Shown: piece after piece, positions 2,435-30,118 of the stretch
How the letters are laid out: each line of letters starts with the position of its first letter
How positions within the stretch are numbered: position 1 is the stretch's first letter
Assembly: GCA_947056845.1 (NCBI GenBank)
Contig: CAMSCJ010000001.1
Coordinates: 96,442-160,441 of the forward strand
DNA length: 64,000 nt
Direction of reading: 5' to 3'
Origin: an uncultured Mycoplasmatota bacterium
GTDB taxonomy: Bacteria; Bacillota_I; Bacilli_A; RF39; UBA660
Made by a program: the position numbers and the translations under genes
The notes under the pieces: generated by a model
Database searches by the model: none
What the model saw: the letters and a program-made list of their open reading frames with translations, nothing else
What the model was told of the DNA's origin: nothing

Positions 2435-3537
2435 TCTCGATTCTCCTCTTTAAATTAGCAGTTATAAATATATCTATATCACCATCTAAAACCTTTGAAA
2501 CATTACTTGTTTCCACATTTGTTCGATGATCTTTTACCATAGAATATGGATGCATAATGTAACTACGAATTTGAGAACCAAAATTTATATCTTTCAAATC
2601 ACCCTTTAGTTCACGCAAATCTTTTTCTCTTTTTTCAATTTCTAATTGATATAATTTACTTTTTAAAATTTCTAAGGCTTTTTCTTTATTTTGGATTTGA
2701 CTTCTCTCATTTTGAACAGTTACGACAATTTTAGTTGGCAAGTGAGTTATTCTAACTGCTGAATCAGTAGTATTAACACCTTGACCACCACATCCACTTG
2801 AACGATACACATCAATACGAAGATCAGTATCGTTAATTTCTATATTAATATCGCCATTTTCAAATAATGGTGTTATATCGATTGAAGCAAATGATGTATG
2901 TCTTCTAGAATTAGAATCAAATGGTGAAATTCTAATTAAACGATGAACACCCTTTTCGTTTTTCAAATAGCCATAGCTATTAATACCATGAATTAATAAT
3001 ACAGAGCTTTTAATTCCCGTTTCTTCTCCGGCTTGCTCATCAACTAATTCATATTTATATCCCTTTAAATCACACCATCTAAGATACATTCTTTTTAGCA
3101 TAAGTGCCCAATCACACGCTTCTGTGCCCCCTGCACCACTATGAATCTCAATCATCGCATCACCATGGTCATATAGTCCATCTAATAATAAGCCTACTTC
3201 TAAATTATTTAAATCTTGACGGAGTTTTTCCTGTTGGGCACTTAAAATCTCGATAAGTTCTAAATCAGGTTCTAACTTTAATAATTCTAATGTTTCAATA
3301 TCATTTTCAATATTATGCTTATATTGTTCAATATCATTTAATTGCTTTTTTAAATAATTAAGTTCACTAATTACTTTCTCGCTATTTACTCTATCACTCC
3401 AAAAGTCACTAGCTTCCATTTCTTTTTCTAGTTCTAAAATTTTTTTTCTTTTTTTATCAGGTTCAAAGTGACCTCCATAAATCTTTTATTCGTGTTAAAT
3501 AGTTATTATAAACATTAACTAATTCATTTATTTCCAT
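2424..3537 (-). CDS. prfB: Peptide chain release factor 2, with programmed +1 ribosomal frameshift
   Basis: ORF 2424..3419 carries SPF and GGQ motifs. The upstream frame 0 reads ATG(3537) MEINELVNVYNNYLTRIKDLWRSL then in-frame TGA (3465..3463), within the CTT TGA context preceded by the SD-like GGAGG. Shifting +1 continues into the track ORF. Confidence 0.9.
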
Positions 3538-3558
3538 AACTATCCTCCAATCTTTATT

Positions 3559-3587
3559 ATTATATCATTTAAAAATAAATAAGTAAA
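3559..3587 (-). promoter_or_regulatory. Sigma-A-type promoter for prfB (TTTACT, 17 nt spacer, TATAAT)
   Basis: Minus-strand sequence TTTACTtatttatttttaaatgaTATAAT lies 20-30 nt upstream of the prfB ATG. Confidence 0.4.
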
Positions 3588-3621
3588 TTAACTAAGAAAA
3601 AAAAGATAAAATATTATCTCC

Positions 3622-5202
3622 TTAATCAATCCATTTAACGGTTTGTTTTTCTAAATGGTAATAATCTAAATACCATGGTTCAACATAAGAAAAATCTTCT
3701 GGCATGTGAAAAGCATATTGGGGGTATTTTAATTTTTTTAAATAAACATCGATTGCTAAAGTTCGGTCAACATTATTAATAATATTTAGATTATAATCAA
3801 AAATCTTAGAATTTTCATGATAATAATAAATACATTTTGAAAAATTAAAAATATTAAATAAAACAAACAAACCAATTAGACTATATTTAAAATAAGGTAA
3901 TTTATCATTATGATATTTCTTAACAATGATAAAAATGATAAGCATGATAAGACCTAATAACCATTGTATATTTAAAATACAAATCCATAAAATAAATATT
4001 TTCAATTGATTATCACCATTATAATAACTATAAAATACATAAATTAAAAATAAAACAAGTAATGGAAAAAAGAATCTATAAGCTGTGTATTCGATTAAAA
4101 TAATAGATGTTAAATTAGCTACAATTCCTCCTAAAAGTAAATATCCTAGTTCAATATTATAATCCATTTTAATGATAAAGCAAGCATAAATATTAATAAA
4201 TAAATAGATTAAAAATATTATATCTATTAGTAAAGGTAATTGATTAAAATCAATGAAACGATAAATTGATATATTTATAAATATAAGGCAATTTATAATA
4301 ATTAGATATATACTAGCAATTTTATTAATGTTATTTTTTGCTTGTAAAAGGTAATATGTTAAAATCATTGACATAATAAATAAAATTGGTGTAAAACTAG
4401 AAGAAAATAAGTAGCCAAAATAATCTGGTAATTTGATAATAAATTTTTCAATAATATTAGCTTCAAAAAATGTTAATTCTTGCTTCGACAAGCGATTAAG
4501 ATTTCCTGGGATAAAATAACTACTAGTTAGCATTATTACAGAAAAAAACAAGAAAATTATCATTTTTTTATTAATATTCTTCTTTAATATATTATGAAAA
4601 TTAATCATAAATAAAAATACGACAATTAGTACAGTTGTACTTTCCATAGTGAAATTAATAATTGTAAAAAATATAAGGCTTAAAATAAATCGCAAAACAG
4701 TATAATTTTTATTATTAATACAATAATCTAAAATAAAGTAGATAATTAATAACATTGGTATATAGGCCCATAAATATAAAATAGTTCCATCAGCCCAGTA
4801 TAAAAGTTCATTAAGCATACTTATATTTAATCCTAGAATAATTAAAGTAATAAAGAAAGTTATTTGTAAAGTATTATGTTGTTTTTTAATGTTAATTATT
4901 TTAGCTATATAGAAACAGAATAAAAACAAAAATAATGGATTTAAAATTCTAAAAAACTGGATACCAAACCAATATAGGCCACTAGTGACAACCGCATGAC
5001 CGATTAAACGTCCCGACCAGTTTTTAAAATAAAGTATATAAAGATAGTCTAATAGACTATTACTTTTTCTTAAGAGTGCAACTATATTATAATCATCAGC
5101 ATACATTTGAACATTTTGCATTTGAATAAAAAATAATAAATAAACAATTATTAATAAAAGAGGATATTTATATCTTTTTATAAAATTAATTATTTTTGCC
5201 AA
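3622..5202 (-). CDS. Large polytopic membrane protein (12 or more TM helices), function unknown. Possibly a GT-C-like glycosyltransferase.
   Basis: 526 aa, almost entirely hydrophobic helices. No catalytic motif recognised. Confidence 0.4.
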   Translation of the reverse strand: MAKIINFIKRYKYPLLLIIVYLLFFIQMQNVQMYADDYNIVALLRKSNSLLDYLYILYFKNWSGRLIGHAVVTSGLYWFGIQFFRILNPLFLFLFCFYIAKIINIKKQHNTLQITFFITLIILGLNISMLNELLYWADGTILYLWAYIPMLLIIYFILDYCINNKNYTVLRFILSLIFFTIINFTMESTTVLIVVFLFMINFHNILKKNINKKMIIFLFFSVIMLTSSYFIPGNLNRLSKQELTFFEANIIEKFIIKLPDYFGYLFSSSFTPILFIMSMILTYYLLQAKNNINKIASIYLIIINCLIFINISIYRFIDFNQLPLLIDIIFLIYLFINIYACFIIKMDYNIELGYLLLGGIVANLTSIILIEYTAYRFFFPLLVLFLIYVFYSYYNGDNQLKIFILWICILNIQWLLGLIMLIIFIIVKKYHNDKLPYFKYSLIGLFVLFNIFNFSKCIYYYHENSKIFDYNLNIINNVDRTLAIDVYLKKLKYPQYAFHMPEDFSYVEPWYLDYYHLEKQTVKWID

Positions 5203-27681: not shown

Positions 27682-27774
27682 TTAAATCACCAACTAATTT
27701 TATTATACCATGGCATAAGAAAAAAGAATTAAAATTAATCCTCTTTTCTTCCTATTTTCTTAACTTTTACCTTT

Positions 27775-28115
27775 TTAAAATCTTCTCCACCATCAGCAAT
27801 ACGTTGACTGCGAATTAATTTTGCAGCATCATAATAAGATATAAATGCTTCATCTATATTTATTGGTTTCATAATTGAAACCCTAACTTCACCACCATTA
27901 TATTTATCAGTATCCCACTGATTATAGAGCCCATATTCTATATTAGTTAAAATATCAACACAATTTGCATTATTATTTTTTTAACTAATACATAATCACC
28001 AATAGTAAGTTTTTTTCCCTATAATTGCATCGTTATCAACTTCATCAACTATTTCAATTAAACGACTCATATATAAGTCTTTCGTACTAATATTTTTTAT
28101 ACTCTTGTCATTCAT
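27775..28115 (-). pseudogene. ORF of about 113 codons broken by two homopolymer-A frameshifts
   Basis: MNDKSIKNISTKDLYMSRLIEIVDEVDNDAIIGKK / LTIGDYVLVKK / NNANCVDILTNIEYGLYNQWDTDKYNGGEVRVSIMKPINIDEAFISYYDAAKLIRSQRIADGGEDF is readable only by shifting frame at A7 runs. Could be sequencing error rather than decay. Confidence 0.3.
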
Positions 28116-28178
28116 AAATTTATTTCCCCTTTAAAATATTACCTATTATAACATCTAATTTTAGTTATGTAAATAATA

Positions 28179-28224
28179 TTTTATAAATAAACAATTGAAA
28201 CTTTTATAAATAAACAATTGAAAC
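28179..28224 (+). repeat. Two perfect tandem 23-bp direct repeats (TTTTATAAATAAACAATTGAAAC) abutting the -35 of the promoter below
   Basis: 28179..28201 and 28202..28224 are identical. Each contains the CAATTG palindrome. Confidence 0.8.
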
Positions 28225-28227
28225 TTT

Positions 28228-28256
28228 TTGACAAAAGTAGCTAAATATGATAATAT
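28228..28256 (+). promoter_or_regulatory. Near-consensus sigma-A promoter (TTGACA, 17 nt spacer, TAATAT)
   Basis: TTGACAaaagtagctaaatatgaTAATAT. No protein-coding gene follows on the plus strand for about 400 nt. Confidence 0.55.
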
Positions 28257-28262
28257 GAATAT

Positions 28263-28385
28263 GTCAAGGCAACTTGAATATAATAAAAAAGGGAAATACT
28301 TAAACTTAGCACGTTGAGTACTTACCCAAAGTTATTTGTTTAAGTACTTAATCTACGTAAGGTAAATTGAGTACTTTTCTTTTTC
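28263..28385 (+). ncRNA. Candidate small RNA of about 120 nt (type I antitoxin-like) with three AAGTACTT palindromes
   Basis: Transcript predicted from the promoter at 28228. Copies at 28315-24, 28341-50 and 28367-76 can pair 1:2 or 2:3, with 16-nt loops in both cases. The 2:3 hairpin is followed by UUUUCUUUUU. Fully antisense to the 3' end of the convergent peptide gene. Confidence 0.3.
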
Positions 28386-28392
28386 ATAGTTA

Positions 28393-28476
28393 CTAGATTA
28401 CAAAAGTAAAAAGTAGGGCTATATGTAAAAGGATAATTAAAATCAAAGCAAAAATTAAAAAGTCTTTCTTAGACAT
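28393..28476 (-). CDS. 27-aa hydrophobic peptide (candidate type I toxin)
   Basis: MSKKDFLIFALILIILLHIALLFTFVI, a single TM helix. Strong SD GAGAGGAGG 8 nt upstream of the ATG. Not in the ORF track because it is under the size cut-off. Confidence 0.4.
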   Translation of the reverse strand: MSKKDFLIFALILIILLHIALLFTFVI

Positions 28477-28656
28477 AATTATCAGCCTCCTCTCATAAGA
28501 AAATCGGCAAGTACCCAACAATTAGTATTTCCTAAACACATTATACTACTTGTTAACAATCTAAATAATTAAATTTTTAATTATAAATTTATACTAACTA
28601 TTATATATAATTTGAAAAAATAAAATAAATCATATATAATTATAACGGTGATTTAA

Positions 28657-29250
28657 TTGAAAACAATCAAAAAAAACATAACTAATGAAATTATAGTAAA
28701 TAAATCAAAATTTATTACTAAATTAATAAAAATTAATAATGAAGAAGAAGTTAAAAACAAACTAGATTTTTTAAAGAAAGAATATAAAGATGCAACCCAT
28801 CACTGTTACTCATATATTACTGGTAATATAAAAAGATTTAATGATGACGGAGAGCCAGGGGGAACCGCTGGTATGCCTATTTTAAATGTCTTAGAAAATA
28901 ATAATTTAACAAATATTTTGGCTGTTGTTATTAGATATTTTGGTGGCATTAAATTAGGAGCTGGTGGTTTAGTTAGGGCATATACTAAAGCTATAACAGA
29001 ATGTTTAAATAATATAGAAATAGTTAATTTAACTAACGGCATAAATTTTAAAATTGAATTTTCTTATGATAACATCAAAAAAATTGATAATATTTTAAAA
29101 GATACTAAAATTACTTATAAAGAATATGATAACAATATTATTTATGAATGTAGTTTGACTATAGAAAATTTTGAAAAAATAAAAAAAGAATTAGAAACTA
29201 ACTCTTTAAATTTAGAAATATTAAATGAAACATTAGTCGAAATTGATTAA
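28657..29250 (+). CDS. yigZ: YigZ/IMPACT-family protein (UPF0029), with TTG start
   Basis: Conserved NDDGEPGGTAGMPIL and YFGGIKLGAGGLVRAY motifs. Confidence 0.8.
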   Translation: MKTIKKNITNEIIVNKSKFITKLIKINNEEEVKNKLDFLKKEYKDATHHCYSYITGNIKRFNDDGEPGGTAGMPILNVLENNNLTNILAVVIRYFGGIKLGAGGLVRAYTKAITECLNNIEIVNLTNGINFKIEFSYDNIKKIDNILKDTKITYKEYDNNIIYECSLTIENFEKIKKELETNSLNLEILNETLVEID

Positions 29251-29262
29251 TGTTTTTCTTTC
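29133..29262. repeat. Direct-repeat copy 1 (about 128 bp): the authentic 3' end of yigZ
   Basis: About 98% identical to 29987..30118. Confidence 0.85.
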
Positions 29263-29278
29263 AATTTACAATATATTT

Positions 29279-29581
29279 TTACTTAAATAATTCACTATGA
29301 CTTCCAGTTGCAAAAAGCAATAGAATTAATGAATCGTCTTCAATTTTATAAACTAAAAGCCAGTCTGGCTCAATATGGCATTCATAACAATCTTTATACA
29401 TTTTATTATTTATAAGATTATGATTTTTATATTTAGACGACAATTCTTGACCATTTGCTAATACATTAAGAACGTCTAAAAATTTATTTTCATCTTTACC
29501 TTGTTTCAAAACTTTTTTAAAATCCTTTTTAAATTGACTGGTAAATTTTACTTCATACTTTGTACTTTGCAAATTAAACAT
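29279..29581 (-). CDS. yafQ: Type II toxin, YafQ/RelE family
   Basis: HIEPDWLLVYKIEDDSLILLLFATGSHSELF matches the YafQ signature H..PDWLL.Y...LVL.RTGSH.DLF. Confidence 0.8.
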   Translation of the reverse strand: MFNLQSTKYEVKFTSQFKKDFKKVLKQGKDENKFLDVLNVLANGQELSSKYKNHNLINNKMYKDCYECHIEPDWLLVYKIEDDSLILLLFATGSHSELFK

Positions 29582-29872
29582 TTATTTTTTTAAATCCTCA
29601 ATCATTTCATACATATTATGATAGCCTTTTGCCTTTATTTTTCCATTTAATATATTTTCACCATCTTGTAGTGCTTCTAATAAATGTTCACTAGGTTTAG
29701 GATTTTTAACCTCAAATGGTAAACCATCTTTATATATCAATTGTTTAATAGCCATATTTACAAATGTACTCATATTAAGTCCTAAACTTTTTAAAATTCC
29801 ATTTGCAACTTCTTTATCATGATTATCTACTTGAACACTAATTGCGCTTGTCAATGGTTCCATATTCTCCAC
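29582..29872 (-). CDS. dinJ: Type II antitoxin, RelB/DinJ family
   Basis: 96 aa. Ribbon-helix-helix-like N-terminus (SVQVDNHDKEVANGILKSLGLNMSTFVNMAIKQLI). Its stop abuts the yafQ start. Confidence 0.8.
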   Translation of the reverse strand: MENMEPLTSAISVQVDNHDKEVANGILKSLGLNMSTFVNMAIKQLIYKDGLPFEVKNPKPSEHLLEALQDGENILNGKIKAKGYHNMYEMIEDLKK

Positions 29873-29888
29873 CTCTTTTTCTGAATTA

Positions 29889-29934
29889 ATATTACCATAT
29901 AATATTGTATGTTGTCAATATAATATTATATGGT
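29889..29934 (-). promoter_or_regulatory. Promoter and operator of dinJ-yafQ: TTGACA-18-TAATAT flanked by a 13-bp inverted repeat
   Basis: ACCATATAATATT (29894-906) and AATATTATATGGT (29922-934) bracket the -35 and -10. Typical autorepression architecture. Confidence 0.5.
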
Positions 29935-29986
29935 ATCGATATGGCATTATAAGCATATTCAATAATATTATATGCAGAATAAAAAA

Positions 29987-30118
29987 ATATATTATTTATG
30001 AATGTAGTTTGACTATAGAAAATTTTGAAAAATTAAAAAAGAATTAGAAACTAACTCTTTAAATTTAGAAATATTAAATGAAACATTAGTCGAAATTGAT
30101 TAATGTTTTTTTCTTTTG
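29987..30118. repeat. Direct-repeat copy 2: a duplicated yigZ 3' end downstream of the TA cassette
   Basis: attatttatgaatgtagtttgactatagaaaattttgaaaaa...ttagtcgaaattgattaatgttttt is repeated 854 bp downstream of copy 1. Confidence 0.85.

Follow-up and report, generated by a model that had tools for sequence, protein, structure and literature searches.

A candidate type I toxin-antitoxin module with a predicted 5'-3' fold-back of the peptide mRNA in uncultured low-GC Bacilli

Does the short region at 28228–28568 of the 64-kb window (the whole stretch of DNA analysed here, from an uncultured Mycoplasmatota bacterium) encode a toxin-antitoxin (TA) system of type I, or do its promoters, hairpins and 27-aa hydrophobic peptide serve something else? 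The original prediction had proposed such a system, with a peptide gene on the minus strand converging with a palindromic small RNA (sRNA) on the plus strand. After comparing the locus with its relatives, we put the probability at roughly 0.65 that these 340 bp are a chromosomal type I TA module of a new family, which has the 3'-overlap layout of Gram-positive systems, is nearest to bsrG/SR4 in its logic and carries an added fold-back lock like those of hok and par. What the sequences and their comparison show are the parts of the module and how far they are conserved, the structures of the RNAs, the constraint on the coding sequence and the module's independence from neighbouring genes. A conserved open reading frame (ORF), a convergent promoter with its sRNA and the recurrence of the unit in three contexts all support the type I reading at this level.

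Relatives were found in two ways. A scan with the protein of the neighbouring yigZ-like gene gave at least five syntenic loci in metagenome-assembled genomes (MAGs) of uncultured Bacilli, and a metagenome scan with the peptide alignment gave at least two further modules, L006 (JAEEGL017367544.1) and L007 (OURU01010299). With the syntenic locus L001 (CAYOYB010000009.1) at least three homologous modules were found, and these were compared with that of the window.

The predicted peptide ORF (28393–28476, minus strand, including the TAG stop codon at 28393–28395) encodes the 27-aa hydrophobic peptide MSKKDFLIFALILIILLHIALLFTFVI, the putative toxin. Its GGAGG ribosome-binding site, 9 nt from the ATG, is present as originally described. 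The peptides of the four loci are 25–27 aa long and all start with MSKKDFL followed by I or V (MSKKDFLVFALILIILLLIALLFTFVI in L001, MSKKDFLIFVLLFIILTQIALLFVILK in L006 and MSKKDFLVTALILIIFSLIALLYLK in L007). Each has a charged N-terminus (KKD) and then 19–22 uncharged residues, with a grand average of hydropathy (GRAVY) of 1.6–2.4; for the window peptide the GRAVY is 2.17 and the uncharged stretch 22 residues. The peptide shares with type I toxins its small size (<60 aa), its hydrophobicity and a predicted transmembrane segment. The ratio of nonsynonymous to synonymous change (pN/pS) is 0.10–0.30 across all six pairwise comparisons of the four ORFs. Between the window and L001, 6 of the 8 substitutions are synonymous (binomial p = 0.002), and the codon for Ser2 is TCT in two loci but AGT in the other two. 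The ORF proposed in the original prediction is conserved, and this pattern of substitutions marks it as a real gene under purifying selection. No conserved ORF was found on the sRNA strand across the loci.

Across the four loci the module occurs in three unrelated contexts. L001, whose YigZ is 91% identical to that of the window, is syntenic and carries the whole module at 81% DNA identity. In L006 the module lies between a regulator with helix-turn-helix (HTH) and WYL domains and a Ham1-family gene, and in L007 it adjoins a DUF1848 gene. A further syntenic locus, L002 (YigZ 87% identical), has kept the flanks but lacks the module (approximately 28260–28609). Its positions 3900–3960, which correspond to 28225–28262 and 28610 of the window, hold a degenerate sRNA promoter (TTCGACA...TTAGAT) followed directly by the yigZ promoter. 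Because this degenerate promoter has been kept, the sequence suggests that L002 lost the module through a deletion of ≈350 bp, rather than lacking it from the outset. The module is also missing from L003–L005, and in L003 and L004 uvrC directly abuts yigZ. Given the unrelated contexts and the absence from a sister genome, the module is a self-contained, dispensable unit.

On the plus strand, the promoter of the putative antitoxin sRNA (TTGACA-17-TAATAT, 28228–28256) was recovered by the promoter scan as originally proposed, and it has a TG extended −10 element in addition. The equivalent promoters are TTGACA-18-TAATAT with TG in L001, TTGCTA-17-TATAAT in L006 and TTTGCA-18-TATGAT with TG in L007. 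A good sigma-A-type promoter is therefore found at the equivalent position in 4 of 4 loci, and it is stronger than the mRNA promoter. At sequence level, the locus encodes what a type I system calls for, namely an antisense RNA with its own promoter that is complementary to the mRNA of the putative toxin.

The predicted sRNA (≈123 nt, 28263–28385, plus strand; ends inferred from the promoter and the U tract) has a 5' leader, the hairpin HP1 and an intrinsic terminator. HP1 (28291–28327, plus strand) has core arms at 28297–28303/28314–28320 and outer G:C pairs between GGG (28291–28293) and CCC (28325–28327). The terminator (28342–28385, plus strand) has arms at 28342–28356/28362–28376 and a U tract at 28376–28385, with 13 consensus pairs, several of them compensatory; the hairpin is followed by TTTCTTTTTC, in agreement with the original description. 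Folding of the 128-nt RNA gave −33.6 kcal/mol (z = −4.5), and 0 of 200 shuffles were as good, so the structural proposal held up here too.

Some details of the palindromic repeats had to be revised. Three copies of one self-complementary octamer had been reported; the copies are in reality GAGTACTT at 28316, AAGTACTT, which occurs once, at 28342, and GAGTACTT again at 28369. What the three do have in common is the heptamer AGTACTT, of whose 8 occurrences in the window 3 lie at the locus, and a degenerate fourth copy (copy 0, AAATACTT) is found at 28294. The RNAalifold consensus of the four loci consists of HP1 (copy 0 paired with copy 1) and the terminator (copy 2 with copy 3). It has 22 pairs, 8 of which show compensatory double changes, with covariation in both hairpins. 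The same two-hairpin form is the minimum free energy (MFE) structure of the window's 115-nt nascent chain, while the MFE structure of the full-length window sRNA has the 1:2 pairing nested inside 0:3. The proposed switch, in which copy 2 pairs with either copy 1 or copy 3, is thus possible in the window but is not a conserved design, since the consensus of the four loci is the two hairpins. A covariance model built from the four sRNAs found no further copy in the window or in the other loci.

The promoter of the peptide mRNA was read from the sequence (28540–28568, minus strand; TTATTT at 28563–28568, a 17-nt spacer and TATAAT at 28540–28545). It is weaker than the sRNA promoter and falls under the threshold of the promoter scan (8/12 matches); L001 and L006 have TTGTTT-17-TATAAT. 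The 3' end of the mRNA is predicted at the T tract CCCTTTTTTATT (28282–28293, minus strand). In 4 of 4 loci the minus-strand complement of HP1 is predicted to form a modest 3' terminal hairpin of the mRNA (−7.8 to −12 kcal/mol) followed by a U run. As the mRNA would end there, sRNA and mRNA would overlap by approximately 87–112 nt across the four loci. In the window the predicted overlap is ≈104 nt (28282–28385) of perfect complementarity, all of it in the 3' untranslated region (UTR) of the mRNA, which is less than the ≈130 nt first claimed. The terminated sRNA of the window ends 8 nt before the peptide stop codon. Going by the predicted ends, a similar gap of ≈8 nt separates sRNA and ORF in L001, while the sRNA covers only the stop codon in L006 and the last two sense codons plus the stop codon in L007.

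A local hairpin is predicted to sequester the Shine-Dalgarno (SD) sequence. In the window (28486–28503, minus strand) the SD GAGGAGG (28486–28492) faces the U-rich anti-SD UUUUCUU (28497–28503). The anti-SD hairpin is found in 4 of 4 loci with differing sequences, i.e., UUUUCUU/GAGGAGG, CUUUCUU/AGGGAGG, GCCUCCAU/AUGGAGGU and UAUCUUCAUUA/UAGUGGAGGUG. Whatever the state modelled, most of the SD is predicted to be paired, and in L006 and L007 it becomes more sequestered (predicted fully paired) once the mRNA 3' UTR is blocked.

The first ≈30 nt of the mRNA 5' UTR are, again in 4 of 4 loci, a same-sense near-copy of the sRNA hairpin HP1. In the window this element is AGGAAAUACUAAUUGUUGGGUACUUGCC (28506–28533, minus strand); in L006, AGGAACAUUCAAU is present in both the sRNA and the mRNA 5' UTR. 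Since the 5' UTR copies HP1 in the same sense, it can pair with the 3' terminal hairpin of its own mRNA. Accordingly, in each of the four loci the MFE structure of the full-length mRNA has the 5' UTR paired with the 3' end. The predicted 5'-3' duplexes have energies of −31.5 to −44 kcal/mol against −10 to −16 kcal/mol for dinucleotide shuffles (z = −5.3 to −8.5, 0 of 500 as good); for the window the values are −31.8 kcal/mol, z = −5.3 and 0 of 500 shuffles. The pairing of the 5' UTR is specific for the terminal stretch at the 3' end of the mRNA, and between the two clades six aligned column pairs have changed on both sides with pairing kept. This is the one point in which the module is distinctive: its 5' UTR repeats the hairpin of the putative antitoxin, which lets it pair with the 3' end of the mRNA.

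How does this compare with known type I systems? In Gram-positive families the antisense RNA lies on the 3' side of the toxin mRNA (PMC8594479). As in bsrG/SR4 and txpA/RatA, a promoter of its own drives the convergent sRNA described here, which is located on the 3' side of a short mRNA and has ≈100 nt of perfect 3' complementarity. SR4 affects both the decay and the translation of bsrG mRNA, and makes its first contact via the terminator loop (PMC3834814). The new module resembles bsrG/SR4 in that the free mRNA keeps its SD partly sequestered and, in L006 and L007, more so when the 3' region is occupied (predicted here, experimental for SR4; PMC3834814). A first contact of the terminator loop with a free internal 3' UTR hairpin would also be possible. 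According to T1TAdb, the antitoxin overlaps the ORF in the txpA/RatA- and bsrG/SR4-type families (PMC8594479), whereas sRNA and ORF are not predicted to overlap in the window and L001. There is furthermore no homology to the toxins of these systems or to BsrE, BsrH and YonT, no Rfam match, and the 25–27-aa peptides lack their charged C-terminal tail. The bsrG/txpA-type toxins are 38–59 aa long. We know of no long fold-back between 5' UTR and 3' end in bsrG or txpA, whereas one is predicted in the new module.

The par locus (Fst/RNA II) of pAD1 from Enterococcus faecalis and the SprA1/SprA1AS pair likewise have convergent promoters and an antisense RNA that covers only the 3' non-coding end of the mRNA. 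RNA I of par contains the elements 5'-SL and 5'-UH (PMC7472228). The new mRNA has a comparable 5' stem-loop sequestering the SD, and a helix tying up its extreme 5' end that is comparable to 5'-UH, although here in silico. Charged residues follow the initiator Met in both (KD in Fst, KKD here). Unlike par, the module has no direct repeats of the DRa/DRb type giving complementarity at the translation start. Here the DNA carries an inverted repeat, so that the sRNA and the mRNA 5' UTR share sequence instead of being complementary. The overlap of ≈100 nt with two hairpins also differs from the one shared bidirectional terminator of par, as does the sRNA of ≈120 nt from the ≈40 nt of RNA II. None of the four peptides has the PXXXG motif, the Trp or the charged C-terminus of Fst.

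The predicted closure of the full-length mRNA by 5'-3' pairing is a likeness to hok/sok and aapA1/IsoA1. In the Helicobacter aapA1/IsoA1 system a 5'-3' long-distance interaction keeps the primary transcript inert. The same is stated of the 5'-3' closure of hok, its tac-fbi fold-back, by Franch et al. (1997), as cited in PMC8594479. In these systems the antisense RNA binds the 5' part of the 3'-processed mRNA, whereas the new sRNA covers the 3' partner of the fold-back. They also differ in host (Gram-negative bacteria rather than low-GC Bacilli), and the new locus shows no peptide homology, no mok-like frame and no Hok_Gef match.

Database searches recovered no known family. Rfam, searched with the whole window at the gathering score and with 28100–28700 at E ≤ 10, returned only two tRNAs and one chance rRNA fragment, which excludes a riboswitch, a leader or an antitoxin RNA of a known type. 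The peptides matched no Pfam or NCBIfam toxin family at E ≤ 10, nor in a scan at E ≤ 1, and with Pfam, NCBIfam and PHROGs they gave only weak noise of the phospholamban type. No paralogues of the module were found in the window by blastn, tblastn or the covariance model. A word-indexed protein search with the 42-aa extended ORF gave no candidates, and an exhaustive phmmer search against 1.84 billion representatives gave 0 matches. These empty results from protein libraries, even with the extended forms of 41–42 aa, are expected because the ORFs are below the length limits of gene callers. A tblastn search of the peptide against plasmids and phages gave no match, where the low-complexity filter may have masked the query. 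Viral contigs scanned with a peptide pattern and with an SD+MSKKDFL DNA pattern gave nothing related. One candidate, L008, was rejected as a homologue; it encodes an unrelated soluble protein starting with MTKKDFLEKV. The string MSKKDFL was not found in the searchable literature.

Since the locus has no Pfam, NCBIfam or Rfam match, no Fst motif, no charged tail, no DRa/DRb repeats and no predicted ORF overlap in the window, it belongs to none of the bsrG, txpA, par and hok families. The guess that it might represent a new family therefore still holds.

The module may work as follows; the production of both RNAs, the order of pairing, the involvement of RNase III and the toxicity are proposed from thermodynamic prediction and from analogy with the systems above. 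The weak minus-strand promoter would give an mRNA of ≈250 nt, with a 5' UTR of ≈60 nt, the 27 codons of a single-pass membrane peptide and a 3' UTR of ≈110 nt. The strong plus-strand promoter with its extended −10 would give a convergent sRNA of ≈120 nt with two hairpins. Free mRNA would be stable and inert, with the anti-SD hairpin over the ribosome-binding site and the 5' UTR paired to the 3' terminal hairpin. The abundant sRNA would probably make its first contact, through the terminator loop, with the internal 3' UTR hairpin that is left free in the locked mRNA. It would then zip along the 3' UTR and displace the 5' UTR, forming a duplex of ≈100 bp. This duplex would be subject to decay of the RNase III type, possibly with tighter sequestration of the SD as for bsrG/SR4, and the membrane-damaging peptide would not be made.

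A more specific version of this scheme, which we hold only tentatively and consider doubtful, gives the sequence likeness a function of its own. The antitoxin RNA would mimic the mRNA 5' UTR and compete with it for the 3' terminal hairpin, and by displacing the 5' UTR from its 5'-3' lock it would take the mRNA from a stable, inert, closed form to a duplex that is sensitive to RNases and in which the ribosome-binding site has refolded and is shut more tightly. To our knowledge such a control logic based on mimicry of the 5' UTR has not been described for type I TA systems. Were this version true, it would define a new family confined to uncultured low-GC gut Bacilli.

Several points weigh against a TA system. 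The two transcripts and their ends are predictions, and the −35 box of the mRNA promoter in the window (TTATTT) is poor. The covariation comes from four loci in two close pairs, which is essentially one deep split. In the window the predicted sRNA overlaps neither the ORF nor the ribosome-binding site, and its complementarity to the mRNA 5' region is not above chance (27–193 of 300 shuffled sRNAs were as good), so any translational control would need to be indirect. Only one copy of the module is visible in the 64-kb window, and it does not lie in an obvious prophage or plasmid. Finally, the peptides lack a charged C-terminal tail: those of the window and L001 end in FTFVI, those of L006 and L007 in a single K. 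Charged C-terminal residues are usual, though not universal, in type I toxins (PMC6563280).

The last two points fit an alternative in which the peptide is a harmless small membrane protein, for instance a regulatory or accessory subunit, with expression tuned by a cis-antisense RNA on the 3' UTR; the architecture would not differ, but there would be no TA pair. The peptide lacks the charged C-terminal tail typical of type I toxins (PMC6563280), the single copy was seen outside prophages and plasmids, and the coding constraint fits any functional peptide. We nevertheless find this explanation unlikely. The module travels as a self-contained unit from one neighbourhood to another, unrelated one, and a sister genome does without it, which is unlike a subunit tied to a partner operon. 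The layers of repression (the hairpin over the SD, the 5'-3' lock, and antisense transcription from a promoter that exceeds the sense promoter) are hallmarks of genes that have to be kept off, and the hotspot also holds a type II TA cassette. Even if the peptide is merely a regulated small membrane protein, the locus would still be a clear example of annotation overlooking a conserved micro-ORF.

Could the plus-strand RNA rather be a cis-acting leader of the yigZ-like gene, i.e., a terminator/antiterminator or a riboswitch, with an incidental ORF on the minus strand? The ability of copy 2 to pair with copy 1 or copy 3 in the window fits such a leader, as does the gene that lies downstream on the sRNA strand in three contexts. 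This is the next gene past the peptide gene in each case (28657 in the window, 2821 in L006 and 2922/2846 in L007), and in the window and L006 it starts approximately 260–270 nt beyond the terminator. The genes themselves (UPF0029, Ham1 and DUF1848) are unrelated, however, and their common strand may be due to chance. As originally stated, no credible plus-strand ORF was found in the ≈400 bp between the sRNA promoter and the yigZ-like (UPF0029) gene at 28657. That gene has its own conserved promoter (TTGAAA-17-TATAAT, 28612–28640), and the element is absent from L002–L005. No Rfam match was obtained even at E = 10. The original prediction had named a known riboswitch or the leader of a longer gene as what would overturn it; the locus turned out to be neither on the evidence of Rfam and the separate yigZ promoter. 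Moreover, the conserved fold consists of HP1 and the terminator rather than a 1:2 antiterminator, and the ORF on the opposite strand is under purifying selection. A leader function is for these reasons very improbable.

Least probable of all is a mobile element resembling a miniature inverted-repeat transposable element (MITE), with 28291–28327 and 28506–28533 as its terminal inverted repeats; these would co-evolve because one transposase recognises both, and the RNA structures would be by-products. In favour of it, the inverted repeat is conserved in the DNA and co-varies between the clades, and the module occurs in different contexts with presence/absence variation. Against it, the conservation reaches both promoters outside the repeats, and the deletion in L002 (approximately 28260–28609) does not end at them. 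The flanks show no target-site duplication, the 64 kb contain a single copy and the other loci no others, and the left repeat is itself a hairpin with internal covariation. Purifying selection also acts on the ORF that the repeats enclose.

Annotation hardly ever covers type I TA loci, as their peptides fall under the limits of gene callers and their RNAs are recognised only if they are in Rfam. If the locus is indeed a type I TA module, it would represent a family, from uncultured gut Bacilli of low GC, that escapes Pfam, NCBIfam and Rfam, and would widen the catalogue of small membrane toxins. Within ≈340 bp the module brings together the hairpin over the SD, the 5'-3' lock and, at the 3' end, an antisense RNA mimicking the 5' UTR. 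In combination, the three RNA devices could reveal how binding at the 3' UTR reaches the ribosome-binding site.

Immediately upstream of the sRNA −35 box there are two exact tandem copies of a 23-bp unit, TTTTATAAATAAACAATTGAAAC (28179–28201 and 28202–28224, 100% identity). The perfect duplication noted in the original prediction is thus present but not conserved, as both L001 and L002 have a single copy and the tandem pair is specific to the window genome. The one copy in L001 indicates a recent duplication in the window genome, and the single copies in the relatives rule out the tandem repeat as an operator, an iteron or a conserved regulatory feature.

On the other side of these repeats, positions 27735–28115 (minus strand) hold a pseudogene, with two in-frame stop codons, of an orphan protein of 122–128 aa. 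The protein is intact in L001 (3037–3423) and L002 (3464–3832), and the window copy shares only 42% identity with the version in L001; Pfam and PHROG searches gave no match for it. Together the pseudogene and the TA module make up an island of ≈900 bp between uvrC and yigZ, which is absent from L003 and L004. In L006 the regulator next to the module (3206–3676, minus strand) is a short protein with HTH_11 and WYL domains, and the module lies immediately downstream of it. Regulators with HTH and WYL domains often adjoin defence or mobile modules.

The type II TA cassette of the window, within 29135–30110, encodes a YafQ toxin and a RelB antitoxin (ORFs 29279–29581 and 29582–29872, minus strand). 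It is flanked by direct repeats of ≈123 bp (29135–29257 and 29989–30110, 96–98% identical) that are duplicates of the 3' part of the yigZ-like gene at its end. L002 has the cassette and L001 lacks it, and it looks like an insertion with target duplication. Just upstream of the RelB-like gene, at 29897–29938, there is an imperfect 21-bp tandem repeat (ATATAATATTGTATGTTGTCA/ATATAATATTATATGGTATCG), which may be the autoregulatory operator of the cassette.

The MAG contigs of L001 and L005 carry the title "uncultured Muribaculaceae bacterium". In the genes they contain and in the order of these, however, they match those of the Bacilli MAGs L002–L004 and of the window, which has 25% GC, and the two are probably mislabelled or chimeric bins.

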